This document shows, one piece after another, positions 14,553 through 50,714 of a stretch of DNA of 55,850 nucleotides. The translations under genes were made by a program, and so were the position numbers. The DNA comes from Candidatus Phoenicimicrobium oleiphilum (GTDB lineage: Bacteria; Atribacterota; Phoenicimicrobiia; Phoenicimicrobiales; Phoenicimicrobiaceae), in the NCBI GenBank assembly GCA_039638295.1, contig JBDIWJ010000007.1:1-55850 (forward strand), given 5' to 3'. The notes below the pieces were generated by a model. It ran no database searches. It had not been told where the DNA came from and saw only the letters and a list, made by a program, of their open reading frames with translations. Each line of letters opens with the position of its first letter. Position 1 is the stretch's first letter.

Positions 14553-14740
14553 AACATAGAAAGTTTAGTTAATATAGTTTCCTTAGAAATTTATTAATCA
14601 AAAATAATTGTAACTAGATCATAGAAGATTAAAATAGAATAGTTTTATGAACAGTTGAGTATACTAAAAGGGTAAAAATTATATCTATTATTTATGATAA
14701 TATTTAGAAAATTAGATTTTCGAGAGGATGGAGTTGATAG

Positions 14741-15691: not shown

Positions 15692-15818
15692 AAAACAACC
15701 ATTTTAGCTACATAATTTATCTTATTTTAGTATTGCTTATTCTGTAGCTTTGTCTTTTAAACTTTATATTAATTATTGTGACAACTTTATTAGAAATTCT
15801 ATTAATTAGGAAAGGAAA

Positions 15819-17054: not shown

Positions 17055-17056
17055 AA

Positions 17057-18181: not shown

Positions 18182-18199
18182 CAAAGAGTGTCTCCTATT

Positions 18200-18605: not shown

Positions 18606-18642
18606 TCATTAACTAAAACTAATATAAAAAGGAGGACATGAA

Positions 18643-20103: not shown

Positions 20104-20184
20104 GCCAGATATATTAAATTATTAATTATTGGTTACTAATAAAATAAATAAACGAATGTAATTAAAAAAAATAGGAGGTTTCCA

Positions 20185-21138: not shown

Positions 21139-21292
21139 ATTTCTGTTAAAAAACAAAATGATTCTATGTAGTTGGGAAAATAACTACGCTAGAAGTAAAA
21201 CTTTTATGTGGAGAAGTTACACTAGTATTATACATATAACTATGACAGGAGACAATTTCGACTGAAAATGTCTCCTATCACGCATTTGGGAG

Positions 21293-23611: not shown

Positions 23612-24479
23612 ATTTTTAACCAGCAAAAAGATAGAAGAGGCTTTGGATTATTTAGATAAATTCAGTAAAGTTCAGATATTGGCTGGGGGGACGGACTTGT
23701 TGGTAAATATTCATAAAGAAAGTCCCCGCTTACCGCATTTTGATTACCTATTAGATATAAGTAATATTCCAGAATTAAAATTCATTACTTTGGTTAAAAA
23801 TTTTATAGAGATAGGTCCTTTGGTGACTCATTTCCGATTAATTGAAGAACCACTTATTAAAGGTAATTTTCCCATTTTATCAACTGCTGCCCAAACTATT
23901 GGGTCAGTCCAGATTCGTAATCGAGGTACTATAGGGGGTAATATTGTGAATGCTTCACCAGCAGCAGACCTCTTACCTCCATTGATTGCTCTAAAGGCTG
24001 AGGTAGTATTAACTTCTAAAAAAAGTGAAAGGATATTATCCTTAGAAAAATTTTTAACTGGTCCCTATAAAACTAAATTACAAGCTGATGAATTATTAAC
24101 TAAAATAAAAATTCCCTTACTTGGTGATGGTTATTACACTGATTTTCAAAAAATAGGTCGGCGAAAAGCATTATCAATTGCGAGGTTGAATCTTGCTCTG
24201 GTTACTAAAATAGACGAAAAAGGTGTTTTTCATGATACCAGAGTTGTACCAGGATCAGCTACCCCTTATCCTCAATCTTTTCCAGTGACTGAAGAATCTG
24301 TCAATGGTAAATCAATATTTAATATTGATTTAGAGGAGATTGGCGAAATAGTTAGTAAAGAAATGGTTTCTATCACTGGAGAAAGATGGTCCACACCATA
24401 CAAGAAACCAGCTATTGCAACTCTAATTAAGAGGGCATTGGAAAAGATTATCAAGGAGGCAAAAACCAATGAAAATTAA
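23598..24479 (+). CDS. Xanthine dehydrogenase-family FAD subunit
   Basis: AGGTDL, IGSVQIRNRGTIGGN, ASPAAD. Confidence 0.92.
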   Translation: MISYEFLTSKKIEEALDYLDKFSKVQILAGGTDLLVNIHKESPRLPHFDYLLDISNIPELKFITLVKNFIEIGPLVTHFRLIEEPLIKGNFPILSTAAQTIGSVQIRNRGTIGGNIVNASPAADLLPPLIALKAEVVLTSKKSERILSLEKFLTGPYKTKLQADELLTKIKIPLLGDGYYTDFQKIGRRKALSIARLNLALVTKIDEKGVFHDTRVVPGSATPYPQSFPVTEESVNGKSIFNIDLEEIGEIVSKEMVSITGERWSTPYKKPAIATLIKRALEKIIKEAKTNEN

Positions 24480-24945
24480 TAAGATTACGGTAACTTTCAT
24501 TGTCAATGGTCAGGAAGTAACCTTAAAGGTGGGTTCTAAGGAGCGTTTACTTGATACTTTGAGGGAACAATTACAATTAACCGGGACCAAAGAAGGGTGT
24601 AGTGTTGGTGAATGCGGAGCCTGTACAGTTATCCTTGATGGAAAGGCAGTCCCTTCCTGTTTGATTCTTACCGGACAGATTGGAGGAAGCGAAGTTTTAA
24701 CTATTGAAGGGTTGGAAGCAGATGGAAAGCTTGATCCTTTACAACAAGCCTTTATTGATTATCATGCTGTACAGTGTGGTTTTTGTACTCCCGGGATGTT
24801 AATGTCTGCTAAGGCCTTACTTATACATAATCCTCATCCCAGTCGAGAAGAAATTAGAACAGCTTTAGAGGGGAATCTATGCCGCTGTACCGGCTATGAA
24901 CAGATTATCGAGGCAATTGAAAGTGTAGCTAAGAATTGTCAGTAG
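24469..24945 (+). CDS. Xanthine dehydrogenase-family 2x[2Fe-2S] subunit
   Basis: GCSVGECGACTV, QCGFCTPG, NLCRCTGY. Confidence 0.94.
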   Translation: MKINKITVTFIVNGQEVTLKVGSKERLLDTLREQLQLTGTKEGCSVGECGACTVILDGKAVPSCLILTGQIGGSEVLTIEGLEADGKLDPLQQAFIDYHAVQCGFCTPGMLMSAKALLIHNPHPSREEIRTALEGNLCRCTGYEQIIEAIESVAKNCQ

Positions 24946-24985
24946 AACCGTCCCCCTAACAATCTAGGGGAGGAGATTTTTTTAT

Positions 24986-26344
24986 ATGTCTTCCATTTTA
25001 ATTAAAAATATAAAAGAAATTGTAACGATGGACAGAGAAAGAAATAGACTGAAAGGTTACAGTCTTTTAATCAAAGATAATAAAATTAGTAAAATTTCCG
25101 ATAAGATAGACTTTGAAGCTGATGAGGTGATTGATGGTTCTGATTATTTCCTTTATCCTGGTTTAATTAATACCCATCATCATTTTTATCAAACCTTAAC
25201 CAGAAATATTCCTCAAGTACAGAATGTAGAGTTATTTAATTGGTTAAAATATCTTTATCCTATTTGGGCTCGCTTAATTCCTGAAGCGGTTTATTACAGT
25301 AGTCTAGTAGCTATGGGAGAACTTCTAAAGACTGGTTGTACTACCTCTGTTGACCAGTTCTACGTTTTTCCTAAAGGTCAGCCAAAAGAACTGTTGGATG
25401 AAGAATTCAGGGCAGCTAAGGAAATCGGAATAAGGTTTCATGGTTGTCGAGGGAGTATGTCTTTGAGTAAAAAAGATGGAGGATTACCTCCTGATGAAGT
25501 AGTTCAAACAGAAGAAGAGGTGCTGGCTGATTCTCAGCGGGTTATCGAAAAATTTCATGATTACAAGCCTTTTGCTATGCAAAGAGTGGTTTTAGCCCCC
25601 TGTTCTCCCTTTTCGGTAACTGAGAACCTTCTGAGAGAATCGATTAAATTGGCCCGAAATTATAAAGTGGAAAGCCATACCCATTTAGCAGAAACCAAAG
25701 ATGAAGAAAAATTTTGTCAGAAAATATTTGGCATGCGGCCCCTTAAATATATAGAAAAAGTTGGCTGGTTGGGTGATGATGTCTGGTTTGCTCATTGTGT
25801 TCACCTGACTGAAAGTGAGATAGATTTATTGGCTGAAACAGGAACAGGAGTAGCACATTGTCCAGTTTCTAATCAAAAACTGGCTTCTGGAGCAGCGAAT
25901 GTCCCTTATATGTTGAAAAAGAAAGTACCAGTAGGATTAGCAGTTGATGGTAGTGCTAGTAATGATTCTTCTAATATGATTGCTGAACTTAAATCAACAC
26001 TTCTAATACATCGTTTAATTTATGGCATCTCCAGTATGTCTGCTGAAGAAGTAATGGTTATGGCTACCAATGGTGGTCGAGATGTCCTTAACCAGCCAGA
26101 AGTTGGGAGCATAGAAGAAGGAAAAGCAGCAGATATGTTCTTAATCAATACTAAAAAATTGGGATTTGCTGGTGGGTTATCAGATTCTGTTTCTGCTCTG
26201 GTAACTTGTGGTGATTCTCAAATTGTGGATATCACTATAGTTAATGGTAAAATTGTAGTTCGTGATGGAAGGTTGGTTACTATTGATGAAAATATAGTGG
26301 CGGAAAAAGCCAATAAAATTTCTCAAGAAATGATTAAAGGATAA
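24986..26344 (+). CDS. 8-oxoguanine deaminase / AtzB-like amidohydrolase
   Basis: NTHHHFYQ, APCSPFSV, HTHLAE, HCPVSN, VDGSASND. Confidence 0.85.
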   Translation: MSSILIKNIKEIVTMDRERNRLKGYSLLIKDNKISKISDKIDFEADEVIDGSDYFLYPGLINTHHHFYQTLTRNIPQVQNVELFNWLKYLYPIWARLIPEAVYYSSLVAMGELLKTGCTTSVDQFYVFPKGQPKELLDEEFRAAKEIGIRFHGCRGSMSLSKKDGGLPPDEVVQTEEEVLADSQRVIEKFHDYKPFAMQRVVLAPCSPFSVTENLLRESIKLARNYKVESHTHLAETKDEEKFCQKIFGMRPLKYIEKVGWLGDDVWFAHCVHLTESEIDLLAETGTGVAHCPVSNQKLASGAANVPYMLKKKVPVGLAVDGSASNDSSNMIAELKSTLLIHRLIYGISSMSAEEVMVMATNGGRDVLNQPEVGSIEEGKAADMFLINTKKLGFAGGLSDSVSALVTCGDSQIVDITIVNGKIVVRDGRLVTIDENIVAEKANKISQEMIKG

Positions 26345-26348
26345 AAAA

Positions 26349-26453
26349 TGTCATTGAGAGGAATAAAGCAAGCTCGTCCCAGCGAAAGCAGGGGAAGCAA
26401 TCTTATCAGTTATGAGATTGCCACGCCCTGATAAATGAGGGTTCGCAATGACA
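26349..26453. repeat. Palindromic extragenic element (TGTCATTG...CAATGACA ends)
   Basis: Terminal inverted repeat with internal gaagcaatct/agattgcc arms. Confidence 0.65.
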
Positions 26454-26566
26454 AGAGAGAGAGTTGCTAAATAATTTATTTTGTAGTACCTAAGGTTAAT
26501 AAATTGGAAATAGTTGGGATAAAATTATTAAGTTTATACTTATTTTGAAGAGAGGGAGAAAGAAAA

Positions 26567-27898
26567 ATGTTGATAATCGGAGACGGAACGGTTCTTACTT
26601 TTGATAAAGATTCTCGGGTTATCTCTAACGGAGGTATAGCCATTGAGGGAGAGGAAATTTTAGATATAGGAGATACAGAAGAATTACAAAAAAAATATCC
26701 GGAAGCTACTTTTAAGGATGTCCAGGGCAAAATAATAATGCCGGGTATGATTAATACTCATATGCATCTTTATAGCACCTTTGCTCGAGGAATGGACCTT
26801 AAAACTGGCCAGCCCCCTAAGAAATTTGTGGAGATTTTGGAAAAATTATGGTGGAGATTAGATAGAACTTTAAATGAAGAAGATATATATTATAGTGCAA
26901 TTTATGCTATTCTGGATTGTGTAAAGAAAGGGGCTACAACTATTTTTGACCACCATGCCAGCGGTAATCTTATTGATGGTAGTTTAGATATAATTACGGA
27001 AGCAGTTCGTCAAAGCGGTATCAGAGCTAGTTTAGCTTATGAAATTTCTGATAGGGATGGTCACGAAAAGGCATTAGAGGGGATTAGGGAAAACGAACGG
27101 TTTATAAAAAAAACACAACGTGAGGGTAATAGCTATTTAAGAGGAATGATCGGGCTTCACGCTTCTTTTACCCTGAAAAACGAGACTTTATCCCAAGCAG
27201 CTTCCTTAGCTGATGAGTTGGAGGTACCTTTTCATATCCATGTCGCAGAAGGTATAGAAGATTTTTATGAAAGTAAAACTCGAGGGTATAAGGGGGTGGC
27301 ATATCGTCTCGATCGTTTTCATATCTTAAGGCCCGGTACTTTAGCTATCCACGGAGTTCATCTTCAGGAAGAAGAATTGGAAATTTTAAAGAACAATGAC
27401 AGTTCTTTAGTTCATAATCCTGAGTCCAATATGGGTAATGCGGTAGGATTTGCTCCGATTAAGACTGCCTTAGATAAAGGTATAGTAGTAGGATTGGGGA
27501 CTGATGGTTACACTTCAGATATGTTTGAAAGCATTAAAGTAGCCAACCTCTTGCAAAAACATGAATTACATCATCCTCAGGCTGGCTGGAATGAGGTCTT
27601 TCAGATGGCTTTTAAGAATAACCGTGAGATTGCCACCAGATCTTTTGACAAAACTTTAGGCATACTTAAGGCAGAGGCCCCTGCTGATATTATAGTGGTA
27701 GATTATTATCCACCCACACCCATTACCAGCGAGAATGCTTACTTTCACATCCTATTTGGTATAAGTGGCGACATGGTCGATACTACTATTGTGGGTGGTA
27801 ATATATTAATGGAAGATAGGGAAATAAGTGGTTTGGATTATCAAAGAATCACCCGAAGAGTAAAAGAACAAGCCGAAGACTTCTGGAAACGATTTTAA
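26567..27898 (+). CDS. ssnA: SsnA-like amidohydrolase
   Basis: HMHLYSTFARG, LWWRLD, DHHAS, GLHASFT, HNPESNMGNAVG, GTDG. Confidence 0.88.
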   Translation: MLIIGDGTVLTFDKDSRVISNGGIAIEGEEILDIGDTEELQKKYPEATFKDVQGKIIMPGMINTHMHLYSTFARGMDLKTGQPPKKFVEILEKLWWRLDRTLNEEDIYYSAIYAILDCVKKGATTIFDHHASGNLIDGSLDIITEAVRQSGIRASLAYEISDRDGHEKALEGIRENERFIKKTQREGNSYLRGMIGLHASFTLKNETLSQAASLADELEVPFHIHVAEGIEDFYESKTRGYKGVAYRLDRFHILRPGTLAIHGVHLQEEELEILKNNDSSLVHNPESNMGNAVGFAPIKTALDKGIVVGLGTDGYTSDMFESIKVANLLQKHELHHPQAGWNEVFQMAFKNNREIATRSFDKTLGILKAEAPADIIVVDYYPPTPITSENAYFHILFGISGDMVDTTIVGGNILMEDREISGLDYQRITRRVKEQAEDFWKRF

Positions 27899-35974: not shown

Positions 35975-35987
35975 AAAATTGAAAAAT

Positions 35988-36027
35988 AAAAAACCTATCG
36001 GGAGATTTAACTCCTGATAGGTTTTTT
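35988..36027. terminator. Bidirectional intrinsic terminator
   Basis: aaaaaacctatcgggag attta actcctgataggtttttt. Confidence 0.8.
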
Positions 36028-36038
36028 GTTTTCTATTG

Positions 36039-36341
36039 TTAACAAGTAGAAGCTGGGCCGCTGTAGGGATGGACTAAAAATCCTCTCTGAAGAAAAAAGT
36101 TAGAATAGTCAATCTTAAAACCTTTATATTGATCTATTAAACTTTTATCTGCCACAAAATCAATACCATCTTCTGAGTAGATTTCGTCATTTTCTTTTTG
36201 CTCATCCAGAGCAAGATTAAAGCTTGGGCCGCCTCAGCCAATTCCTGCTAAAAATATTCTTATCTTTTTGTTCGTTGCATTTTTTTGTTCTAAAACTTTT
36301 TTTATTTCCCCTAAAGCTTTGTTGGTTACTTTTATCGACAT
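36039..36341 (-). CDS. HesB/IscA-like selenoprotein, 100 aa, Sec at codon 36 (absent from the ORF track)
   Basis: MSIKVTNKALGEIKKVLEQKNATNKKIRIFLAGIG-UGA-GGPSFNLALDEQKENDEIYSEDGIDFVADK...STC*; SD AAAGGA; hairpin 19 nt after UGA. Confidence 0.92.
36198..36214 (-). promoter_or_regulatory. SECIS-like hairpin of the HesB-like gene
   Basis: UUGCUC-UGGAU-GAGCAA starting 19 nt 3' of the UGA at 36236-36234. Confidence 0.75.
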
Positions 36342-36425: not shown

Positions 36426-36492
36426 CATTAATGGTAAATTAATTTTAAATTTTAGAAAGGTTTTATTTTCACCGGTAAACTACCGGTGGAAC

Positions 36493-37146
36493 TTAGCTCC
36501 CTCAGCCGCCGCCACTTGAAGTAACAGTAATATTTACGGTATCACTTTTAGTTATCTCGCCTTCTGTATAACTTACGGTGATAATCGCGGTAGTAGTTGA
36601 GCATGATGACAATACTGTAATTACTCCATTAGCGATTGTGACCTTAGTGTTATTTGATGCATAGGTACAAGCACTAAGTGCTATATCAGCAGAAGTATCA
36701 TTATCATAATGAGCAGTAACGGAAGTTATTTTCTTTGAGCTACCTGCTGCTATCGACATAGTGGTAGGAAGTACTTCTATCGAAGTAAGTAAGGCTTCAT
36801 TTACTGTAATAGTAAACGATTGAGTGTCTGATTTACTACCATCAGAGACCTCTACCACGACTTCGTTTTCACCAATTTGACTTTCTATCGGAGTCCAACT
36901 GATTACCCCGGTGGTAGAATTAATGGTCATACCAGAGGGATAAATAATTAGGGAATAAGTTAAAGTGTCTCCGTTAAGGTCAGTGGCATCGACATCATAA
37001 GTATAGGCCACACCTTCTTTAGCAGTAGTTATTGGATCAGATTCAATTGATGGTGAAATGTTGAAAAGAAAACAACCAGTAAATAAAAATGCAATAAAAA
37101 ATACACTTAAACTGAGCAATAATTTTTTATTTTTAATGATAATCAC
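36493..37146 (-). CDS. Ig-like-domain lipoprotein; ends at UGA 36502 or, if recoded, ...SSGGG-U-GS at UAA 36493
   Basis: Basic N-terminus, hydrophobic helix, lipobox LFTG-C; YTYDVDATD..GDTLTYSL..PSGMTINSTTGVISWTP Ig repeat; second Big-like domain. Confidence 0.8.
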
Positions 37147-37197
37147 CTCCTTTCTGGAAAAACAAAAAAATAATATATCTATCTTAAAATATATTAT

Positions 37198-38235
37198 TTA
37201 AATTATCCGTATTTTTTTACCAGAGGAAACTTTTATGACTTTACCAATAACTTGGCTGGAAGTAAATCCTTTTTGGAAGAGCAATTCTTTTGCTTTTTCT
37301 GCCTGTTCAGGACTAATAGATAGTAATAATCCTCCTGAGGTTTGCGCATCATATAGGATGATTTCCTTTTCTGAAGGAATGTCCTGTTTTGTTTCAACCG
37401 AACAGGAGTAAATTTCCTTGTTTTTCAATGTCCCTCCCGGAATCATCCCCGAAGAAATATATTTATCCAGGCCGTCTATTACCGGAATATCATTAATCCA
37501 CAATTCAGCCCCCAGTTTATTTTTAGTCAGCATCTCACTTAAATGTCCAATCAGACCAAAACCGGTGATATCAGTCAAACCGTGTATGGATAATTTTAAT
37601 AGTTCTTTGGGAAGTTGATTTAGTTTGGCCATCCAAAAAATAGCTTTTTTTACAGTGTCTGGCTCGGCAATATTAGCCTTAAGGGCAGTAGATAATATTC
37701 CGGTACCCAGGGGTTTGGTTAATATCAGTAAATCTCCTTCTTGAGGAGTATCATTATAAATAATATTCTGAGGATGAATTAATCCCACTACAGCCAATCC
37801 ATACTTTGGTTCTTTATCTTTTATGGTATGTCCACCCACTAAAAGAGCGCCAGCTTCTGCAACTTTATCTGCCCCTCCTTTTAAAATAAGTCCAAGATCA
37901 TCTACTCTATCTTCGGGAAAAGCAACTATATTTAAAGCAAGAAGAGGGTTTCCTCCCATAGCAAAAATATCACTTAAGGCATTAGCTGCGGCAATTTGTC
38001 CAAAAGTGTATGGGTCATCAACTATCGGGGTAATGACATCCAGGGTAAAAATAAGGGCTTGTTTATCGTTTAATCGATAAACAGCAGCATCTTCATATTT
38101 TTCAAACCCAGCTAATAAATTATTATCTTTTAGAACATTAATTTTTTTTAAGACCTCACCGAGATCTTTAGGATTTAATTTAGCTGCTCATCCAGCAGCA
38201 GAAGCCATTTGAGTTAATTTTCTTTTGTCTATCAA
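37198..38235 (-). CDS. selD: Selenophosphate synthetase SelD, selenoprotein form (Sec16), 345 aa
   Basis: TTG start 38235 with SD AAGGAG; LTQMASAAG-UGA-AAKL, EDAAVY, PIVDDP, ANALSD, GGHT, TKPLGTG, TDITGFGL, DAQTSGGLL; in frame with track ORF 37198..37959. Confidence 0.95.
38150..38168 (-). promoter_or_regulatory. SECIS-like hairpin of selD
   Basis: AAGAUCUC-GGU-GAGGUCUU starting 19 nt 3' of the UGA at 38190-38188. Confidence 0.78.
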
Positions 38236-38265: not shown

Positions 38266-40155
38266 TTAGCTAAGTTTATTTTTTAATATTCTAACATTTT
38301 CTTTTCGTTGAGTAATATTTTCCTCATCCATCTTATTAAGCAAAGGAATTATATATTTGCGGCTTATCCCTAATAAGTCCCTCACCTGACCAATAGAGAT
38401 GGAGCCCTTTACTTTTAAAAAATCTATTAATTTATTTTTCATAATATCATAATTTTTACTATCTAGTAAAATTCCGTCGCTTAATTTGATAATTTCTCCT
38501 TCTTGAATCAAAAAATCTATAATTTCTTTGCTGCCAGCAATTTGAGAGATAAGTGTTTTCTCCTTGGGGGGATTGGTAAAATTTTCTTTCAGGATTTTTA
38601 ATATTTTATCCATTAACTCTTTTTGGGAAGCAGAAAGTTTAGGTTTGCGGGAAGGTAAAAATATCATTCCCCTTTTTAAATTTATCTTATTTGCCTTAAT
38701 CAGAGATTTTATCAGGCCATTAAATATTTCTGGTTTAAGATAATAGAAATAACTTTGAAATTTGTTTAAGGGGAAGCCGATTTGCAAAGGAGATAATTCA
38801 TATTCCTGGTTCAATCTTTTCATAAAATTTATTATCTGCTCTTGCCAGTAGTTTTTATCAATTAGCCAGGAAGAGGTAGCAATTAATTTACCTTCTTGTT
38901 CTAACAACTCTGTTATATTCATAATGTTTGAATACGAAAAATTACTATTAATTAATAAATTATCCTTTTTAATAAAGTTATCCTTTTTTAGTTCAGCTAA
39001 GATTAATTCTCTTAAGTCAAGTTTTGCGCTTTTCTGTAAAAGATTAACTATGTCTTTGTCTTTAAAATGATGCTTGTAGGCTAAAGGGTCGATAATTAAT
39101 CCCCCACCAATAGTTTTAGGAGGGCTCGGTATTCTTAAGATAAAGCGGTCTCCCAAAAATGTTGCCTGCGGTTCTTTAAAGCGAAGTTGGGCGAATCCTG
39201 TTTCACCAGGACAAAGAGGTTTGTTTTCGGGAAAAAATATTTTAGCCAGGGTCTCTTTGGTTCCAGTAAAAAAAACTACTTCTGACCGATTTTTTAAGGA
39301 ATAATTTTTAAGTTGAGGTTGGGAGAGAAGTTGTATCTGGACATCTAAGTATTTACTGGCTTTAATCTGTTTAGTTCCAAAGACGATGTCTCCTCTATGA
39401 AGTTCGTTTTTTTCTATTCCTGCTAAGTTAAGGGCTACTCTGCTTCCCGGAAGAGCTTTTTCTACTTTCTCTTTGTAAGTTTGTAAACTTCTCAGGCGAG
39501 TTTTTTGATAAGAAGGGAAGATGGTTGCTTCCATTCCTTTATAAAGAGTGCCTCCTTTAAGAGTACCGGTTACTATTGTGCCACTTCCTTTAATATTAAA
39601 GACCCGGTCGATGTATAGTCTTGGTTTCCCTATATCTCTCTGGGGTTTCATCTGAGGAATCAAGTTTTGAATGGCTAATTTTATTTGTTCAATTCCTGTT
39701 TTTTTTACCGTACTTACTTTTACTATTGGTGCATTGAAGAGGACAGTATTTTTTAACCTCTCTTTAATCTGTCTTTCTACAATATTTACTCTACTTTGGT
39801 CTACCAGATCAGTTTTAGTTATAGCAATGATACCATACTTTATGTGGAGGAGTTCAGTAATTTGGAAATGTTCTTCAGTTTGAGGCATCCATCCTTCCTT
39901 TGCATCAACAACTAAAATTACCGCATCGATTCCGGTTGCTCCAACTATCATATTCTTTACCAGGTTTTCGTGACCAGGAACATCGACTATTCCAACTTTT
40001 TCTCCCGAGGGAAGTTTCATCCAGGCAAACCCCAAATCAATAGTCATACCTCTTTCTTTTTCTTCGGGTAGACGGTCAGTATCTATGGAAGTTAGAGCAT
40101 AGATTAAGGCTGTTTTACCATGGTCAATATGTCCTGCTGTACCGAAAACAAACAT
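38266..40155 (-). CDS. selB: Selenocysteine-specific elongation factor SelB
   Basis: GTAGHIDHGKT, EEKERGMTIDLGF, DVPGHE, C-terminal winged helix LGISRKYIIPLL. Confidence 0.96.
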   Translation of the reverse strand: MFVFGTAGHIDHGKTALIYALTSIDTDRLPEEKERGMTIDLGFAWMKLPSGEKVGIVDVPGHENLVKNMIVGATGIDAVILVVDAKEGWMPQTEEHFQITELLHIKYGIIAITKTDLVDQSRVNIVERQIKERLKNTVLFNAPIVKVSTVKKTGIEQIKLAIQNLIPQMKPQRDIGKPRLYIDRVFNIKGSGTIVTGTLKGGTLYKGMEATIFPSYQKTRLRSLQTYKEKVEKALPGSRVALNLAGIEKNELHRGDIVFGTKQIKASKYLDVQIQLLSQPQLKNYSLKNRSEVVFFTGTKETLAKIFFPENKPLCPGETGFAQLRFKEPQATFLGDRFILRIPSPPKTIGGGLIIDPLAYKHHFKDKDIVNLLQKSAKLDLRELILAELKKDNFIKKDNLLINSNFSYSNIMNITELLEQEGKLIATSSWLIDKNYWQEQIINFMKRLNQEYELSPLQIGFPLNKFQSYFYYLKPEIFNGLIKSLIKANKINLKRGMIFLPSRKPKLSASQKELMDKILKILKENFTNPPKEKTLISQIAGSKEIIDFLIQEGEIIKLSDGILLDSKNYDIMKNKLIDFLKVKGSISIGQVRDLLGISRKYIIPLLNKMDEENITQRKENVRILKNKLS

Positions 40156-40167
40156 AGAAACCTCTTT

Positions 40168-41586
40168 TTATTTCATCTTGGAATAAACTGATTTAATTAT
40201 TTTTATTACTAAATTATCTGTTGAAGGGTCAATAGTACGTGGATCTAAAACAAAATATTCTTTTTCTTTTCTTCCCAGAAGAGGAGGGTGGGATAATCGC
40301 AATTCTTTAGAAAAAATTTCTACTGGACAAGGGGGTTTGATGATTATCAATTTTGTGGGTAAAGTTTGTCCGGGCAAAGAACCTCCCCCAATAGCAGTTT
40401 GCCCTTCTTTAGTAAATGCTGGGATACCTTCTTCTTTTAATTCTTGACAGATATTTTGGCTGCGTAGTTCAATTTTTTCTAAGGGGCAGGAAATCATCTT
40501 CCAGATGGGAATTTTAGTAACCGCTTCATCCTTTAAATAATACAATAAAACTTCTTGTAAGATAGTTAAAGCCATTTTGTCTACTCTGAGGGTTCGAAAT
40601 AAAGGGTGTTGGGATATTTTCTTCAGATAAATCTCTTTTCCACAAATAGCTCCTCCCTGAGGGCCTCCTAAGAGTTTATCTGTACTAAAACAGACAATAT
40701 CAGCACCTGCCCTAATATTTTCTTGAACAGTTGGTTCGTGCTTTAGTCCAAAAGTTTCGGTGGCTAAGAATGTCCCACTTCCCAAGTCTACTACTACCGG
40801 TAAATTATATTTTCCCCCTAATTTTTTAAGTTCTTTAACTTCAACTTGGTGAACGAAACCGTTCATATGAAAATTACTTTGATGGACTTTTAGGATTAGG
40901 GAAGTATTTTCATTAATTGCTTTTTCATAATCACCAATAAAAGTCTGGTTAGTAGTTCCTACTTCTCGAAGGTGAGCACCGCTCTGTTCCAATATCTCTG
41001 GAATGCGAAATCCTCCCCCAATTTGCACTAATTCTCCTCTGGAGACAATCACTTCTTTGTTTTTAGCCAGGGTATTTAGTATCAAGAATATGGCACCAGC
41101 ATTATTATTAACTATTAGGCTTTTTTCTGAATGGCTGAGGGTACAGAGTAATTTTTCGACAATTTCTCCTCTTTTCCCTCTATTCCCTTCTATAAGATCA
41201 TACTCTAAATTAATATAACCCTGAAGTGTATTCTGGATTGTTTTAAGTATTTCTTCGCCCAGAGGTGCTCTTCCCAGATTGGTATGGAGGATTACCCCAC
41301 TGCCATTTATAACTTTTTGCAGATAAGACACATTTTCTTTTTCTAAATATTCTTTAATTTTATTTATCCTTTCTTGTGCTGAATAGAGGTGGCTATTTTT
41401 GCGAGCATTTTTTTTCTCTTCGGAGATAACTTTTCTTACTGTTTGGGTAAGTATTTTTCGGGAATATTTTTGTATTAAAGGTTTTAGGGCTTTATTTTGT
41501 AAAATTATTTCTACACTGGGTATTTTGGATAGTAATAAATTTAAATTATTATTGTTTAAATCTTTATTATTCTCATTATTCTTCAA
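40168..41586 (-). CDS. selA: L-seryl-tRNA(Sec) selenium transferase SelA
   Basis: VINGSGVILHTNLGRAPL, VNNNAGA, SRGELVQIGGGFR, EVGTTN, STDKLLGGPQ. Confidence 0.96.
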   Translation of the reverse strand: MKNNENNKDLNNNNLNLLLSKIPSVEIILQNKALKPLIQKYSRKILTQTVRKVISEEKKNARKNSHLYSAQERINKIKEYLEKENVSYLQKVINGSGVILHTNLGRAPLGEEILKTIQNTLQGYINLEYDLIEGNRGKRGEIVEKLLCTLSHSEKSLIVNNNAGAIFLILNTLAKNKEVIVSRGELVQIGGGFRIPEILEQSGAHLREVGTTNQTFIGDYEKAINENTSLILKVHQSNFHMNGFVHQVEVKELKKLGGKYNLPVVVDLGSGTFLATETFGLKHEPTVQENIRAGADIVCFSTDKLLGGPQGGAICGKEIYLKKISQHPLFRTLRVDKMALTILQEVLLYYLKDEAVTKIPIWKMISCPLEKIELRSQNICQELKEEGIPAFTKEGQTAIGGGSLPGQTLPTKLIIIKPPCPVEIFSKELRLSHPPLLGRKEKEYFVLDPRTIDPSTDNLVIKIIKSVYSKMK

Positions 41587-41630: not shown

Positions 41631-41729
41631 TGGCGGGAGGGGTAGGAATCGAACCCACCGCGGCAATTACCATTAATTACCGCCCACGGATTTGAAGTCC
41701 GCAAGGCCCACCAGAGCCTATCCGCTCCC
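41631..41729 (-). tRNA. selC: tRNA-Sec (anticodon UCA)
   Basis: 6-bp D stem with 4-nt loop, anticodon loop CUUCAAA, 10-bp variable arm, GGUUCGAUUCC T arm, G discriminator, encoded CCA; directly upstream of selA. Confidence 0.97.
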
Positions 41730-41763
41730 TCTTAATTTAACTTTTTAAGATATTTTATTTTTA

Positions 41764-43485: not shown

Positions 43486-46400
43486 ATGGGAGATATTATG
43501 CGGCCAATATCCTTTAAACGACTACTTTATTGGATAACTGAGGAATATAGGAAACAGCGAACCATTTTTGGGATACCAGAATCACAATTTTTTAAGAAAG
43601 AAAACCCAAAAAGTATTCAGATATTTAACGAAATTTGTGACACTCCTATAGGGCCAGCAGCAGGGCCCCACACTCAGTTGACTCAGAATATTATCGCTGC
43701 CTATCTGGTTGGGGGGCGCTTTTTTGAGCTTAAAACCGTACAAAAACTAGATAGCCTGCAATTTGACAAGCCCTGTATTGATGCCCGAGATGAGGGTTAT
43801 AATACCGAATGGTCTACTGAACTTTCTCTGGAACAGGCATATAGTGAATATGTTAAAGCCTGGATACTGCTTCACTTTATAGAATCAGTTCTTGATATAC
43901 GAGCTACTACAAAACCTTCTTTTATTTTTAATATGAGTGTTGGTTATGACTTAGAGGGAATTAAAACACAACGTATGGATTCATTTATTAATGGTTTAAT
44001 TGATGCCTCGGAACAACCAGTATTTAAACGTTATCTGGAGGAATTAGATTTTTTTGTTCAAGGAACAAATTTTCAAGAGATTAATAATCTAAAAGGAAAT
44101 ATTGAAAACCTAAAGAATATTTCCAGAACTATTTCCCCTTTTATTACTCACTCTGTAACACTTTCTACTATGCATGGATGTCCTCCCCTTGAAATAGAAG
44201 CGATCTGTAAATATCTTTTGACAGAAAAAAAACTTAATACTTATGTGAAATTAAATCCAACTCTCCTGGGATTTAGAAAGGTCAGGGAAATACTGGATAA
44301 CCTGGGTTTCGATTATATATCCCTTAAAGAATCTACATTTACTAAAGATTTGCAATGGAATGATGCGATAGGTATGCTTGAACGACTTTCTAAAGTAGCC
44401 ACTGATTGTGGCTGTAATTTTGGGGTTAAACTCTCCAATACGCTGGGAACGGTAAATACCCTCGGTGTCCTTCCGGGAGAGGAGATGTATTTATCGGGAC
44501 GCATTCTCTTCCCGATTACTATCACTTTAGCTTCCCGTTTATCGAAGGAGTTTAAAGGGACTCTTCCTATATCTTACTCAGGAGGAGCATCCCAGCTAAA
44601 TATCCTTCAGATTTTTGAAACAGGAATTAAACCAATTACAATGGCTACCAACCTCTTAAAACCAGGTGGCTATCTTAGAATGGTGGAGATGGCCCGAAAA
44701 TTAGAACCAATTATTAGCGGGAAGAGGCAACTCAAAATTATTGATGTGAAAAAACTCGAAAAATTAGCCAAAGAAGCCCTTGGGGAAAAATATTATCGGA
44801 AGGGTTGGAGAGGCACGAAGGAAATTTGCGTTGATCAAAAACTACCTTTAATTGATTGCTATACAGCTCCCTGTGTTTTTTCCTGTCCCATCCGACAGGA
44901 TATTCCTGAATACATTCGATTAGCAGGTAGTGGACAATATAATAAAGCTTTGGAACTTATCTATTCAAAAAATCCGCTTCCCCATATAACTGGCTATATT
45001 TGTGACCATCAGTGTATGTATAATTGTACTCGACTCGATTATGAAGGAGCGGTTAATATTCGCGAAGTGAAAAAGATTGCGGCTGAACAGGGAGAAGTTA
45101 CCTACAATGTTAAGAGTTACATCACTGGTGAACAGTTTAATGAGTTGGATACAAAAGTAGCGGTTATCGGTGCAGGACCAGCAGGATTATCTGTAGCTTA
45201 TTTTCTGGCTAAAGCTGGATTTAAGGTTACTGTATTTGAGAAACAAGATTCTCCCGGTGGGGTAGTGAGCCATATACTGCCTAATTTTAGAATCCCTGTC
45301 TCTGCTATCGAAAAAGATATTGCGATTATCAAAACACTAGGGGTGGATTTCCAGTTTGGGGTATCAGAAGAGTTTTCTATTAATAATTTAAGTAAAGAGG
45401 GATATAAATATATCTTTATCGGGATTGGTGCAGAAGTTTCAAGGGAACTAAAGTTAGCGTGTGACAATAGCAACAACTATAAAGCTCTGGATTTTTTAAG
45501 GTCTTTTAATAAAAATGCAGGAGCTCTTAATCTTGGTCGAAGGGTTGCCATAATAGGAGGGGGGAATACTGCTGTGGATAGCGCAAGAGCAGCGCTGAAG
45601 GTTGACGGTGTTGAGAAGGTTTTTATCATTTACCGTCGTACTGAGGAAGAAATGCCGGCAGACCGTGAGGAATATGAACACGCACTTGAAGAAGGGATAA
45701 TTTTCAAATCCCTCTTGTTACCAGAATCATTTTCTCAAAAAGGTATTCTAAAATGCCGTCGAATGACTTTAGGCGAACCTGATGAAAGTGGTCGTCGACG
45801 TCCTGTCCCCACTGAAGAGACCGAAGAAATTGATGTAGATTCTGTAATCAGTGCTATTGGAGAGATTCCAGATATCAGGTTCCTAACTGCTCAAGGAATA
45901 AAACTTGAGACTGGAAACAAGCCTTATGCAGACCCAGAAACTCTGGAGACTAATGTGAAAAATGTTTTTATAGGCGGCGATGCCTATCGTGGACCCTCGA
46001 CCGTGGTCCAATCTATTGCCGATGCCCGAAAGGCAGCAGAGGCTATTATTAAAAAGGAGATGCCAGGCTGGAAAGGTTTAGATAAGGATTTTAAACTGAA
46101 ATTCAATAAAAAACAACAGATTTCCGAGATTTACCGTAAAAAAAGTCGTCTCATTCCTGAGGTAATATCCGAAGACGATAGGGTAATAACTGAAAGTGAA
46201 GCAGAGCGGTGCCTAGAGTGTAAGATTATCTGCAATAAATGTATGGATGTCTGTCCAAATCGGGCAAATGTGGCGATTGAGATTGATAAGAAAGAAGATT
46301 TTCAAGATGTCTTTCAGATTCTCCATCTTGATGCACTGTGTAATGAATGTGGAAACTGTGCTACATTTTGTCCCTATGATGGCAAACCATATAAAGATAA

Positions 46401-46650
46401 GCTGACTCTTTTTACAACCAAAGAGGACTTTGAAAATAGCACTAATAACGGTTTTATAGCTGCCGATTACACCGATAGTCAGTTAATAACCCTGAGGTTG
46501 AATGATAATCTGTGGAAATTAAAATTGGGTAAAGACGGTAAATTGATTCCTGTAGATTCACAATGTCCGGATGATTATAACATCAAAGAACTTAAAAAAG
46601 CCAGCGCAATAATAAGCACTGTATTAAAAGATTACAATTATTTAATTTAA
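43486..46650 (+). CDS. ygfK: YgfK-type Fe-S flavoprotein oxidoreductase
   Basis: GPAAGPHTQL, ELKTVQ, STMHGCPP, KLNPTLLG, KLSNT; GltD-like GAGPAG and GGGNTA; C-terminal CxxCxxCxxxCPNRAN and CNECGNC. Confidence 0.92.
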   Translation: MGDIMRPISFKRLLYWITEEYRKQRTIFGIPESQFFKKENPKSIQIFNEICDTPIGPAAGPHTQLTQNIIAAYLVGGRFFELKTVQKLDSLQFDKPCIDARDEGYNTEWSTELSLEQAYSEYVKAWILLHFIESVLDIRATTKPSFIFNMSVGYDLEGIKTQRMDSFINGLIDASEQPVFKRYLEELDFFVQGTNFQEINNLKGNIENLKNISRTISPFITHSVTLSTMHGCPPLEIEAICKYLLTEKKLNTYVKLNPTLLGFRKVREILDNLGFDYISLKESTFTKDLQWNDAIGMLERLSKVATDCGCNFGVKLSNTLGTVNTLGVLPGEEMYLSGRILFPITITLASRLSKEFKGTLPISYSGGASQLNILQIFETGIKPITMATNLLKPGGYLRMVEMARKLEPIISGKRQLKIIDVKKLEKLAKEALGEKYYRKGWRGTKEICVDQKLPLIDCYTAPCVFSCPIRQDIPEYIRLAGSGQYNKALELIYSKNPLPHITGYICDHQCMYNCTRLDYEGAVNIREVKKIAAEQGEVTYNVKSYITGEQFNELDTKVAVIGAGPAGLSVAYFLAKAGFKVTVFEKQDSPGGVVSHILPNFRIPVSAIEKDIAIIKTLGVDFQFGVSEEFSINNLSKEGYKYIFIGIGAEVSRELKLACDNSNNYKALDFLRSFNKNAGALNLGRRVAIIGGGNTAVDSARAALKVDGVEKVFIIYRRTEEEMPADREEYEHALEEGIIFKSLLLPESFSQKGILKCRRMTLGEPDESGRRRPVPTEETEEIDVDSVISAIGEIPDIRFLTAQGIKLETGNKPYADPETLETNVKNVFIGGDAYRGPSTVVQSIADARKAAEAIIKKEMPGWKGLDKDFKLKFNKKQQISEIYRKKSRLIPEVISEDDRVITESEAERCLECKIICNKCMDVCPNRANVAIEIDKKEDFQDVFQILHLDALCNECGNCATFCPYDGKPYKDKLTLFTTKEDFENSTNNGFIAADYTDSQLITLRLNDNLWKLKLGKDGKLIPVDSQCPDDYNIKELKKASAIISTVLKDYNYLI

Positions 46651-46719
46651 CTTTAAAATTCAAAATTTATGACGATAGTAATGTAATTTTGGCTTTACCA
46701 GTATCATTCTAGTATCTTA

Positions 46720-46789
46720 TGTCATTTCCACGAAAGTGGGAACCCAGAATAATATTTAAAGATAAGTTCCTGTTTCCACGGGAATGACA
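46720..46789. repeat. Palindromic extragenic element (TGTCATT...AATGACA)
   Basis: gtcatttccacgaaagtgggaa...ttcctgtttccacgggaatgac. Confidence 0.65.
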
Positions 46790-46802
46790 GAAAAGAGTTG
46801 TA

Positions 46803-46935
46803 TGGCGATACGCAATACGCAATAAGTTAGTGTAAACTTTAGTGGTATAGTTAGGTAGAAATAAGAATACTACTTTTTTGTATCTTTTCTTCTCTTTCTT
46901 AACTCGATACTGGATACTATATACTCGATACTATA
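46803..46935. repeat. Heptamer mosaic repeat, opposite orientation
   Basis: gcgatacgcaatacgc; tatcttttcttctctttcttaactcgatactggatact resembles 55555-55585. Confidence 0.55.
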
Positions 46936-47010
46936 TTTTATAATAACTTGGCAAGAGCATTTTTTAAGTGATAAAATATATATTGGATTAGGAGGTGGTG
47001 AATCCGACTT

Positions 47011-47940
47011 ATGGAAGAATCATTCGGAGATTTAAAGGGATGCCAAAAAACTTATCAGAAAACTGCTCTCTCTCAGTATTTTGCTCCTCAGAAAATAGAG
47101 GAAGCACTGGAAATTTTATCTAAATATGGAGAAGAAATTAAAATAATTGCTGGAGGGACCGACCTGTTAGTTCAATATTATGACCGACTTTATGAAATCA
47201 ATAACTGGTTAGATTTAAAAAACATTATAGAATTAAAGAAGATAAGAATAAGCAAGAATCAAATGGAAATTGGGGCGACGGTTACCCACTCCCAATTAGA
47301 AAACTCTGAAGATATCAAAAAGTACTTTCCCATCTTAAGTCAAGCAGCTGCTGATATTGGTTCTCCCCAGATAAGAAATCGAGGGACCGTGGGAGGGAAT
47401 ATTGTTAATGCCTCACCAGCTGGTGACCTTTTGCCTCCTTTAATGGCTTATGACGCTCAATTTAAATTGCTCTCTGTTCAAAAAGAAGAGCTAATTCCCG
47501 CGGAAGAATTTTTTGTAGGACCTAAACAAACTATTATAAAACCAGACCAATTATTGACTCAGGTAATCCTTCCTCTGCCATATGAAAAAACTTATGATAG
47601 CTGGATTAAAATTGGTAAGAGAAGGGCTTTAGCCATTGCCACTATTACTTTAGCTTTGGTAGTTAAAATGGCTGAAGATAATAAAACAATTAAAGAGGCA
47701 AGAGCCTGCTTGGGCTCAGTAGCACCCACTCCTATTCAAATAAAAGAGATTAGAGAAAGAATGATAGGAAAAAACTTTAATCAATTAGATTTTAATCAGT
47801 TAGGACAGATGGTAGAAGACAAGATTTCACCTATTGATGATATTAGAGGGACCAGGGAATACCGCAAAGATGTAGCCAAAGAAATAATGATCAATGCCTT
47901 AGAAGAAGTGTATTCAAGTTGGTGGAGGTCATATAAATGA
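47011..47940 (+). CDS. Mo-hydroxylase FAD subunit (second set)
   Basis: AGGTDL, IGSPQIRNRGTVGGN, SPIDDIRG. Confidence 0.92.
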   Translation: MEESFGDLKGCQKTYQKTALSQYFAPQKIEEALEILSKYGEEIKIIAGGTDLLVQYYDRLYEINNWLDLKNIIELKKIRISKNQMEIGATVTHSQLENSEDIKKYFPILSQAAADIGSPQIRNRGTVGGNIVNASPAGDLLPPLMAYDAQFKLLSVQKEELIPAEEFFVGPKQTIIKPDQLLTQVILPLPYEKTYDSWIKIGKRRALAIATITLALVVKMAEDNKTIKEARACLGSVAPTPIQIKEIRERMIGKNFNQLDFNQLGQMVEDKISPIDDIRGTREYRKDVAKEIMINALEEVYSSWWRSYK

Positions 47941-48440
47941 CTAAATTAATAATAGAGTTGACCATTAATGGTAAGAAAAAAAAGGTAGAGACTACTCCTT
48001 CAACTCGTTTACTGGATTTAATAAGAGATGACCTGCATTTAACCGGAACCAAAGAAGGTTGCGGAAAAGGTGAATGTGGAGCCTGCACAGTGATAATGAA
48101 TGGTGAGTTAGTAGCATCCTGTTTAGTGCTGGCGCCTCAGGCTGATGGAGCAGTTATCACTACTATTGAAGGAGTAGGAGATGACAAAGGTCTGGATCCA
48201 GTTCAAGAGGCTTTTATAGAGAGCGGGGCAATTCAATGCGGATTCTGTACCCCGGGAATGATTTTAGCTGCTAAAAAAATGCTCGAAGAAAATCTCCATC
48301 CTACCGAAGAAGAAATAAAGCGGGGTATTTCTGGAAACCTCTGCCGCTGTACCGGTTATCAAAAAATATTTGATGCTATCAGATTAGCGGCAGATAGGTT
48401 ATCCAGTAGAGATGGGGGAAGGGGTGAAGAAGATGCCTAA
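47937..48440 (+). CDS. Mo-hydroxylase 2x[2Fe-2S] subunit (second set)
   Basis: GCGKGECGACTV, QCGFCTPG, NLCRCTGY. Confidence 0.94.
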   Translation: MTKLIIELTINGKKKKVETTPSTRLLDLIRDDLHLTGTKEGCGKGECGACTVIMNGELVASCLVLAPQADGAVITTIEGVGDDKGLDPVQEAFIESGAIQCGFCTPGMILAAKKMLEENLHPTEEEIKRGISGNLCRCTGYQKIFDAIRLAADRLSSRDGGRGEEDA

Positions 48441-49713
48441 AGAATATGTAGGTAAAAATATTTTCAAAGTAGATGCCTATGACAAAGTAACCGGCAAGGC
48501 TATATATGCTGATGATATATATTTTGATGATATGTTGTATATAAAGATTAAAAGAGCCACTTATCCCCATGCTTATTTACGCCGAATAGATATTAGTAAA
48601 GCACAAAAATTACCAGGGGTAGTAAGGATAATCACTGCTGCTGACATCCCCTGGGTTAAAAATTTTGGTTTGATTATTAAAGACCAACCGGTTCTTGTTG
48701 GAGTTGGTCAGAAAATGCGTTATATGGGTGATGCTTTGGCAATAGTAATTGCCGAAAGTAAAGAGATCGCGTCTAAGGCAGTTAAATTAATCGAGGTGGA
48801 AGTAGAAGAATTAGAAATAATTTCCGACCCCTTGCGAGCTATGGAAAAAGATGCCCCTCTTATTCACCAAGATGGCAATATCCTGGCTACCCATTACCTA
48901 GAAAAGGGGGACATAAAAAAAGGTTTTGCCCAGGCAGATGTGGTTGTAGAAAATGAATACAGAACAAGCTTTTTAGATCAGGTTCCCCTTCAGGTAGAGG
49001 CTGGGGTGGGGGTTTTTGACCCGGAAACTGAGATTATCAAACTCTGGGTAGCTACTCAATGGCTTCATGACACTCAGGCAGATATTGCCCAATCTTTAAG
49101 TTTACCTAAAGAAAAGATAAGGATTATTCAACCAGTTATCGGAGGTGCCTTTGGTAAGAGAGAAGATATCTCGGTTCATATCCATCTGGCTTTAGCGGCA
49201 ATGATTACTAAAAAGCCAGTTAAACTCACTTATACTAGAGAAGAATCAATGATTACTCAATCTAAACGGCACGCTTTTATTGTTCGAGCAAAAACTGGAG
49301 CGACTAAAGAAGGTTATTTAACTGCCTGGCAGGTGGAAGTGATTGGCGATACTGGGGCTTATGCCTCCAGTGGTCCAGCTGTAGTACATAAAGGTATGTA
49401 TCATTGTACGGGGCCTTACAATGTAGATAATGTAAAAGGTGTGGCCTATACTGTTTATACTAACAATACTTATGCGGGAGCGATGCGTGGTTTTGGAGCT
49501 ACTCAGATGGCTTTTGCTTATGAATCCCAGATGGATATTTTAGCTCATAAATTGGGGATTGACCCGGTTCAATTCCGTTTACAAAATGCCTATAGTATCG
49601 GTTCTTCTACCCCCAATGGGCAGGTATTGACCCATAGTGTAGGAGTGAAAGAGACCATTAAAGGAGCGGTAGATTTAGCTGGCTGGGAGGAATGGAAGGA
49701 GGGAAGACTATGA
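48433..49713 (+). CDS. Mo-hydroxylase large subunit, N-terminal half
   Basis: KVTGKAIYADD, GGAFGKRED, GAMRGFG; ATG 48433 overlaps the upstream gene. Confidence 0.9.
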   Translation: MPKEYVGKNIFKVDAYDKVTGKAIYADDIYFDDMLYIKIKRATYPHAYLRRIDISKAQKLPGVVRIITAADIPWVKNFGLIIKDQPVLVGVGQKMRYMGDALAIVIAESKEIASKAVKLIEVEVEELEIISDPLRAMEKDAPLIHQDGNILATHYLEKGDIKKGFAQADVVVENEYRTSFLDQVPLQVEAGVGVFDPETEIIKLWVATQWLHDTQADIAQSLSLPKEKIRIIQPVIGGAFGKREDISVHIHLALAAMITKKPVKLTYTREESMITQSKRHAFIVRAKTGATKEGYLTAWQVEVIGDTGAYASSGPAVVHKGMYHCTGPYNVDNVKGVAYTVYTNNTYAGAMRGFGATQMAFAYESQMDILAHKLGIDPVQFRLQNAYSIGSSTPNGQVLTHSVGVKETIKGAVDLAGWEEWKEGRL

Positions 49714-50714
49714 AGAAACGTGGGAGAGGAATAGCTACTATTATGTTCGGTTTTGGTTATGGAGAAGGATTTCCTGACCACTCCATTGCTTCAGCAGAAG
49801 TTGAAGATGAGGGAAAGATTCTAATAAGAACTGCTGCAGCAGATGTAGGACAGGGTGTTTTAACTGTAATTACTCAGATTGCAGCAGAGGTTTTAAAGGT
49901 GAAGCCGGAGGTAATCAGAATTATTCCTGGCGATACTCATTTAACTAAAAATTCCGGCTCTTCTTCAGCAACCCGGCAGACATTTTTTACTGGCAATGCA
50001 GTGAAAAAGGCTTCAGAAGGGTTGTTGAGTAATATTTATCATTATGCCAGTATTGAGTTTAGAAGCAATTATGTAGAATTAGGAATAAAAGATGGTTATA
50101 TTTTTAGAAATGATAATCCAAATAATAAAATAAGTTATTGGGAATTAGCCAAGAGGGTAAAAGAAAAAGGTGATTGTTTAAAGGCAGAAGCGTCCTTCTT
50201 CCCTCACACTGATAAACCCGACCCCAAAACCGGACAGGGCGAAAAAGTTTATGTGGCTTATACCTTTGTTACCCAGGTGGTTGAAGTGGAAGTTGATACC
50301 GATACGGGTATTGTTCAAGTATTAAATGTGTATACTACGGCAGATATCGGTAAAGCTGTAAATCCTAAGAACGTGGAAGGGCAGATAGAAGGAGGAACCG
50401 TCCAGGGGATAGGTATGGCTCTGATGGAAGAGCAGGTTGTTAAAGAAGGCATCACCTTGAATCCGGATTTAACCGGTTATCTAATTCCTACTTCTATGGA
50501 CACTCCTCTCTTCACTACTCGGATAGTAGAAAACGAAGATTCAGAAGGGCCTTTTGGAGCCAAGGGAATCGGGGAACCGGCTACTATTGCCACTGCTCCG
50601 GCCATTGCCAATGCCATTTATGATGCCACAGGGGCAAGAATCTGCGACCTTCCTATCACTCCGGAAAAGATTCTAAAAGCCCTGAAAGAGAAGAGAGGGG
50701 ACTGCAAGGAATAG
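49710..50714 (+). CDS. Mo-hydroxylase medium subunit, C-terminal half
   Basis: MKKRGRG, DVGQG, SSATRQT, GQIEGG, GAKGIGEP; ATGA coupling with SD GGAGG. Confidence 0.9.
   Translation: MKKRGRGIATIMFGFGYGEGFPDHSIASAEVEDEGKILIRTAAADVGQGVLTVITQIAAEVLKVKPEVIRIIPGDTHLTKNSGSSSATRQTFFTGNAVKKASEGLLSNIYHYASIEFRSNYVELGIKDGYIFRNDNPNNKISYWELAKRVKEKGDCLKAEASFFPHTDKPDPKTGQGEKVYVAYTFVTQVVEVEVDTDTGIVQVLNVYTTADIGKAVNPKNVEGQIEGGTVQGIGMALMEEQVVKEGITLNPDLTGYLIPTSMDTPLFTTRIVENEDSEGPFGAKGIGEPATIATAPAIANAIYDATGARICDLPITPEKILKALKEKRGDCKE

Follow-up and report, generated by a model that had tools for sequence, protein, structure and literature searches.

The window, a 55,850-nucleotide stretch of a JS1-class Atribacterota genome (Candidatus Phoenicimicrobium oleiphilum), contains all four genes for selenocysteine (Sec) insertion, selA, selB, selC and selD. 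They are arranged on the minus strand in the order selC-selA-selB-selD and are followed, again on the minus strand, by a gene for a predicted Ig-stalk selenolipoprotein and by a hesB-like gene. The features of the locus are the following.

36493..37146, minus strand: Ig-stalk selenolipoprotein gene, taken with its UGA read through; 217 codons from GTG, with ATT at 37137 as the likelier start
37135..37152, minus strand: likely translation start, Shine-Dalgarno AGGAGGTG, 6 nt, then ATT as putative start codon
37072..37146, minus strand: lipoprotein signal peptide with the lipobox FTG-C at its end, Cys25 in GTG numbering being the predicted lipidation site
36799..37053, minus strand: Ig domain 1, He_PIG (PF05345), residues 32-116; Pfam E 1.4e-17 and AF2 model
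36520..36789, minus strand: Ig domain 2, Big_2/LigA-like, residues 120-209, with Cys160 and Cys182; AF2 model, Foldseek and hmmsearch
36496..36519, minus strand: flexible tail Ser-Ser-Gly-Gly-Gly-Sec-Gly-Ser; mean pLDDT 52 for residues 211-217
36502..36504, minus strand: UGA codon, predicted Sec; TGA in 43/43 homologues
36470..36488, minus strand: bacterial SECIS hairpin, 8-bp stem and GUU loop 21 nt past the UGA; fold and covariation
36039..36341, minus strand: HesB-like selenoprotein gene (TIGR01911) with an in-frame UGA and its own promoter-like site at 36425-36397
37198..38235, minus strand: selD, UGA-recoded (TIGR00476)
38266..40155, minus strand: selB with a C-terminal SECIS-binding winged helix (PF09107, E 7e-16)
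40168..41586, minus strand: selA (PF03841)
41632..41730, minus strand: tRNA-Sec (selC)

The selenolipoprotein gene ends TCA AGT GGC GGC GGC TGA GGG AGC TAA, with the TGA at 36504-36502 and the TAA at 36495-36493. An earlier note on this DNA had read the TGA as a Sec codon in a gene flanked by two UGA-recoded genes, and both neighbours do carry an in-frame UGA (selD, TIGR00476; HesB-like, TIGR01911), with hairpin loops 27 nt and 25 nt past it, respectively. Close relatives with named public records (66-77% identity) are from Atribacterota and include Ca. Sediminicultor, which PMC11227167 places in the JS1 class Phoenicimicrobiia. A 20-bp inverted repeat at 35984-36031 forms a bidirectional terminator-like site between hesB and a convergent DUF6506 gene.

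Homologues were gathered in two sets. The search of 61 genomes yielded 30 loci with 32 matches, of which 30 were complete two-Ig genes that all end in TGA at this position (30/30); of the other two, one runs off a contig end and the other encodes a different, longer protein and has TAA. Twenty more regions gave 18 matches, five of them contig-cut and 13 with a complete 3' end, and TGA was again present in 13/13; these 13 genes had been picked by protein similarity and were absent from the training alignment. TGA thus ends each of the 43 homologous genes whose 3' end is complete; these genes belong to two families, f1 and f2, in 31 genomes and, being drawn from related genomes, do not represent 43 independent events. 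The earlier note had named UAA or UAG at this position in homologues as evidence against Sec, and neither was found among the 43. In the genome of the window, TGA terminates 202 of 1048 long ORFs (19%). The first 30 homologues share 32-77% identity with the window protein, and the UGA codon persists across deep, well-supported branches of the protein tree. As a control, longer Ig paralogues with other C-termini had TAA at 11 and TGA at 6 of 17 complete ends, with the hairpin at none of the five testable TGA ends.

The hairpin itself proved to be as the earlier note had described it, a perfect 8-bp stem at 36488-36470 with G first in the loop and no U-tract; it begins 13 nt past the UGA. Folding of the 60 nt from the UGA gave -15.2 kcal/mol (z -2.34), a value equalled by 5/200 shuffles. 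The published bSECIS model, as given in the part of PMC13188914 that lists loop, spacing and energy, describes a loop of 3-9 nt with G in its first two positions, 16-37 nt from the UGA, and an energy of at most -7.5 kcal/mol; the window gene falls within these bounds with its GUU loop at 21 nt and a bare stem of -10.9 kcal/mol. The doubt that had been voiced over the spacing (+22) and the single loop G is answered by the family, whose loops lie 18-27 nt past the UGA (22/43 at exactly 21 nt), inside the published range, and read GUU in 27/43 and GGU in 11/43 genes. The bare stem reaches -7.5 kcal/mol or lower in 23/43 genes, with weak stems in a few paralogues. Over a set of 30 genes, pairing is seen in 95.4% of stem cells, a share reached in 0/500 shuffles, and two-sided changes occur at 7/8 pairs, a number reached in 2/500; slid-register controls pair at 22-48% versus 95%. 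The hairpin is therefore retained and covarying in the homologues, whose loss of it the earlier note had named as a point against Sec. In a scan of the same genome for SECIS-like hairpins past long-ORF stops, about 1% of stops had one (11/732 TAA, 3/282 TAG and 2/261 TGA), and one of the two TGA cases is the window gene. Rfam holds no family for the window hairpin. We rejected a terminator at 36470-36488, given the missing U-tract, the retained loop G and the absence of the hairpin from the terminator-scan list; the real terminator-like site lies past hesB.

The distribution of the gene follows that of the Sec machinery. selA was detected in 39/61 genomes and in 30/31 genomes with a complete selenolipoprotein gene, and in the remaining genome the start of selA is visible at a contig end. 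Nine genomes of another class have neither the selenolipoprotein gene nor selA. Seven selA-positive genomes yielded no copy, and contigs were checked in five of these (all except G018 and G036): in G004, G017, G021 and G024 the sel contig stops before the usual place of the gene, and in G048 the contig starts just upstream of selA. RNA runs were set aside as evidence for transcription, as they offer contigs only and in one of them coverage is even over the whole 10 kb, intergenic DNA included.

One expectation of the earlier note failed. It had predicted Cys substitutions at the Sec position and had counted their absence against the proposal, and none was found in 43 genes or among the 194 database proteins listed (in one search, the best 120 of 738 matches). 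A 2026 review states, in the passage concerned, that nearly all selenoproteins possess a Cys form (PMC13188914). Because the other evidence is strong, we take the missing Cys form as an unusual peculiarity that the available sequences suggest for this family, and not as a refutation. Three database proteins (P0212, P0270 and P0343) have Trp at the Sec position, either because the genes were called with a different code or because the codon is truly TGG.

The missing Cys forms, and the mere 1-11 codons that remain past the UGA, are what would be expected if the UGA simply ended translation and the hairpin served to terminate transcription or to stabilise the RNA. Yet an ordinary stop would have had to stay TGA in 43/43 genes at up to ~60% divergence in AT-rich, TAA-dominated genomes in which the longer Ig paralogues switch stops freely, and beside a hairpin that keeps its loop G and has no U-tract; the gene is, moreover, found only alongside Sec machinery. 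We regard an ordinary stop as extremely improbable. The same observations, TGA in every homologue, a covarying hairpin and the machinery at hand, sustain the original claim, and we hold it highly probable that the window UGA is decoded as Sec. Since an in-frame UGA and a covarying SECIS accompany all complete relatives, the product of the gene is very likely a lipoprotein with the C-terminus Gly-Gly-Gly-Sec-Gly-Ser.

The AlphaFold model (mean pLDDT 91) comprises a signal helix, Ig domains at residues 30-116 and 120-209 and a low-confidence tail, and the best matches of the stalk are LigA (8gyr; Foldseek E 2e-10, hmmsearch E 2e-9) and cadherin-like repeats. Together with the He_PIG match (PF05345, E 1.4e-17), these results uphold the two-Ig-domain stalk that had been proposed. 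The proposed lipid anchor also gains support: Gly24-Cys25 is conserved in at least 90% of 30 alignment rows, and with Lgt, LspA and BamA encoded in the same genome, the probable product is a lipoprotein in a cell with two membranes. The lipobox is missing from L027 and from some tandem f2 paralogues. The presence of BamA makes the periplasm as likely a location as the cell surface, so the 'surface' placement of the earlier note is unproven. Cys160 is invariant in 30/30 homologues and aligns to a core Val of LigA, which suggests that it is probably buried; a role as resolving cysteine was dropped on account of this alignment and of its likely position at the far end of the domain. Of 62 longer forms in the database, 15 have both a Gly tail and Cys160, 5 the tail only, 2 the Cys only and 40 neither. 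Database proteins P0166-P0205, a sister clade of lipoproteins with four Ig domains, lack the Gly tail and in most cases Cys160 as well, and provide a natural control without Sec.

Cys182 is present in 18/43 genes and marks one supported clade (98/94) made up of f1 and copies linked to ars genes, and most genes without it have no second Cys near Sec. In the model, the strand 185-195 pairs with 198-209, which would put Cys182 beside the tail and make a Cys182-Sec bond feasible. The Gly/Pro tail ranges from 2 to 15 residues across the family, and the residue after Sec is Gly in 26/43 genes. Variant tails create classic redox motifs, CxxU in L027, L047 and L035:1610 and UxxC in L010; the loci concerned are L027/L154, L047, L035:1610-2323 and L010.

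The hairpin model also matched genes without any Ig domain, and a second hairpin model was used to scan 86 genomes of the phylum for such tiny genes. Eighteen were found in 17/22 f2 genomes, with one further metagenome copy (L124-L140, L159, L081), and the hairpin model scan found none in f1 genomes or in the genome of the window. At 23-25 codons, each consists of a ribosome-binding site, a signal of 21-23 residues, a lipobox Cys (19/19), Sec and a stop, and the ends read Cys-X-Sec-Gly/Ala in 17/19 and Cys-Sec-Leu in 2/19. The predicted mature product would be a seleno-lipopeptide of 3-4 residues. Their hairpins are 93.5% paired, with covariation at 7/7 pairs and 0/500 shuffles doing as well. 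No selA, selB, selD or tRNA-Sec was detected in two of these 17 genomes, which are 85% and 89% complete; this counts against the Sec reading of the tiny genes unless contigs are missing. Six tiny-gene loci adjoin a DUF1573 lipoprotein gene and five of these also a redoxin gene. A pattern search of metagenomes returned 6 matches, 2 of them tiny genes and 4 due to chance, and 1/11 weak matches of model R1 that were examined is a tiny gene. Decayed remnants, with tail and hairpin and no intact gene, lie at L045:3003-3068 (minus strand), L046:3361-3426 (plus strand) and L141:1501-1552 (minus strand), the last in a genome without detected Sec machinery.

At the other extreme, database forms with 3-4 Ig domains, among the matches listed, likewise end Gly-Gly in their protein records; the 4-Ig form was absent among 52 genomes searched. 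The layout is thus signal-Cys-(Ig)n-Sec-Gly, where n is 0, 2 and probably 3-4. Because the spacer varies from none to 3-4 domains while the Sec tail is kept, function probably resides in the tail, with the Ig domains as a spacer.

Such a tail need not act as a free group, and Sec could instead engage a partner as a ligand or through a covalent link, whether at a metal centre in an envelope enzyme, in a diselenide dimer or with some other component of the envelope. A flexible tail of this length on a rigid spacer would suit that role, as would the tandem paralogues found in several genomes, and a passage of PMC13510729 describes how the Sec of MccSep reaches from an Ig-like domain into a heme site. 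However, sel genes and hesB are the only conserved adjacent genes and no other conserved partner gene was found, the residues past Sec vary freely (Gly in 26/43), and a lipopeptide of 3-4 residues offers little binding surface. We therefore judge a ligand or link quite unlikely.

The two families differ in their place beside the sel genes, the gene lying after selD in f1 and upstream of selC-selA in f2. Their start regions differ as well: ATT stands 6 nt past the Shine-Dalgarno site in 15/15 f1 genes, one of which has GTA where the others have GTG, while 8/8 f2 genes have ATG or GTG 5-7 nt past the same Shine-Dalgarno. From this comparison, the GTG at 37146 is probably part of the Shine-Dalgarno site and the true start AUU (ATT at 37137). 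The name Sec215 in the earlier note holds for numbering from GTG (215 of 217); with ATT as the start, Sec would be residue 212 of 214.

A probable AUU start suggests translational control, the f2 unit sits directly upstream of selC-selA, and the Ig stalk is already complete before the UGA. These features would fit a UGA-SECIS unit that serves mainly as a selenium sensor: by binding SelB or pausing the ribosome it would tune the sel genes downstream or the stability of the protein, and Sec would have no chemistry of its own. In f1, however, no sel-operon gene follows, and hesB is served by a separate promoter-like site; in paralogues and tiny genes the unit persists although sel genes are far away, and every tiny gene retains the lipobox Cys. 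A sensor role seems to us very improbable.

We favour instead redox or metalloid chemistry by a selenol that is tethered to the membrane in the envelope and recycled by CcdA and thioredoxin, and give this mechanism as a whole an even chance. SelB would insert Sec at the UGA, and the product would be exported and lipidated at Cys25, so that two Ig domains would serve as the spacer for a reactive selenol displayed in the cell envelope. Oxidants or soft metalloids (As(III), Hg, Cu or sulfur species) would be the reaction partners of the selenol, and an exported thioredoxin, itself supplied by CcdA, would return it to the reduced state; in the Cys182 clade a Cys182-Sec bond could close. The lipid-Cys-X-Sec-Gly sister lipopeptides would act likewise at membrane level, free of a spacer. 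A candidate reductant path is encoded in the same genome at G000:C24:17935-19575 (minus strand), where a ccdA-like gene is followed by one for an exported CxxC thioredoxin, beside nifS/nifU-like genes.

Three paralogues lie among ars genes. One (L151:4169-9852) comes after arsR, an arsP-type permease gene, two thioredoxin genes, ccdA and acr3; another (L152:86-3965) lies between acr3 and arsC, with one intervening gene; the third (L044:3-2210) follows an arsP-type permease gene and has lost its signal peptide and first domain. This arsenic link is limited to 3 genomes of one genus, one copy being truncated. The CxxU and UxxC tails and the DUF1573 and redoxin genes beside tiny genes also speak for the favoured chemistry, and the lack of a partner Cys in most copies speaks against it. 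VIT1 is also among the genes of these clusters.

Most selenolipoprotein copies adjoin sel genes, an arrangement that fits selenium handling equally well. The exported Sec tail would then capture, store or relay selenium together with the HesB-like protein and SelD and feed selenium-dependent molybdenum enzymes. A Sec-type hesB adjoins the gene in 26/28 genomes that have a UGA-type hesB, and its placement takes two forms: it lies downstream in f1 and is divergently oriented in f2. Screens of the window's own genome (91% complete) gave only SelD, the HesB-like protein and the Ig-stalk protein as credible selenoproteins, and the missing Cys forms would suit selenium-specific chemistry. The genome also encodes YqeB (contig C5), and the window contains a large purine/pyrimidine catabolism region (11969-27895 and 43486-50711) with two xanthine-dehydrogenase-like (molybdenum hydroxylase) clusters and a YgfK-like gene; YqeB and these clusters make it probable that a labile selenium cofactor is in use as well. 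Against such a role, one Sec per 214 residues makes poor storage, the ars-cluster paralogues and tiny genes lie far from sel genes, and ordinary selenoprotein genes also cluster beside sel genes. Selenium housekeeping is, on this evidence, possible although unlikely. Elsewhere in the genome, on the minus strand of G000:C20, frames of 289 and 380 codons are split by one TGA with a weak hairpin and may be a broken gene, adjacent genes or another case of recoding.

We compared the Ig-stalk protein with catalogued families. No NCBIfam family matches it, and Pfam recognises the Ig domains only. Two of the tiny lipopeptides, compared in the same way, have no NCBIfam match either, giving just generic lipoprotein-signal matches below cut-off. 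A profile search of 1.84 billion representatives was dominated by long He_PIG-repeat proteins and was uninformative on other phyla. The Big_2 repeats of Leptospira LigA/LigB and cadherin-like domains are the top stalk matches, yet they belong to long repeat proteins without a Sec tail. Eukaryotic SELENOK and SELENOS end Gly-Gly-Sec-Gly. As outlined in bioRxiv 10.1101/2021.05.15.444318, they are anchored in the membrane and carry Sec in a disordered segment, 2-3 residues before the C-terminus, but their SECIS is in the 3'-UTR and they have no Ig stalk; we liken them by layout alone, as an analogy without a claim of homology.

Table 1 of PMC13188914, a 2026 table of 119 prokaryotic selenoprotein families, has no matching entry, and the main texts of that paper, of deep-Sep (PMC12013277) and of BSepDB (PMC13326102) make no mention of Atribacter, Ig-like or lipoprotein; our search of the published literature found no paper on an Ig-stalk Sec-tail family. 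The nearest described case is SaoC (NF040734), a Cys-Cys-COOH (seleno)lipoprotein reported by Haft and Gwadz (bioRxiv 10.1101/2022.07.06.499078); its fold, motif and operon are not those of the Ig-stalk protein. SaoC, as described there, shares a lipoprotein signal, Sec at or near the C-terminus, a GGU-loop SECIS past the UGA and a history of being overlooked by annotation pipelines, but it is mostly Cys-Cys, has Sec in 3/52 species and belongs to a nine-gene SAO operon. The Ig-stalk protein, by contrast, has Sec throughout its family, placed after glycines on an Ig stalk, and shows no NF040734 match, Cys-Cys/Cys-Sec end or SAO operon. DUF1573/OS_HP2 (PF07610, NF041425) is likewise an Ig-like exported protein with a Sec form, and its Cys form adjoins several tiny genes; the best BLASTP E is however 0.72, the Ig-stalk protein has no PF07610 domain, and the Sec motif given in Table 1 of PMC13188914 is UGC, whereas the Ig-stalk protein has Sec on a terminal tail. 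KCU-star (NF033934) and selenobacteriocin (TIGR04081, SGUG motif) resemble the tiny genes, as far as their family entries go, in being small with Sec near the end. The claim of an uncatalogued family thus stands, and from the sequence comparisons the Ig-stalk Sec-tail lipoprotein is very likely a real selenoprotein family with decoding of a known kind and a new architecture.

Catalogued prokaryotic selenoproteins nearly all have Sec in a folded active site and Cys relatives, and pipelines rely on these traits. The Ig-stalk family has neither, so databases list the protein cut at Gly-Gly, and the missing Cys form would explain why methods based on Cys/Sec pairs overlook it; the sister genes of 23-25 codons are below normal gene-calling limits. 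The family suggests that selenoproteome surveys have a blind spot for terminal Sec tails without a Cys form. The predicted lipid-Cys-X-Sec-Gly product, minimal and within reach of chemical synthesis, would allow the role of selenium outside the cytoplasm to be probed, including possible protection against arsenic, mercury or oxidants. If the prediction is true, this lipopeptide of 3-4 residues would be the smallest genetically encoded selenoprotein; we know of none smaller.

Taken together, our results lead us to a broader proposal, tentative and rated somewhat below an even chance, that JS1-class Atribacterota use a Gly-Sec-Gly envelope tip for which no Cys substitute exists, carried on stalks of 2-4 Ig domains or as a lipopeptide of 3-4 residues that acts like a membrane selenol cofactor. 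This tip may be the main product of the Sec machinery in the genome of the window. It also suggests why subsurface anaerobes retain a costly Sec system that, in our screen, would otherwise serve only SelD and the HesB-like protein.
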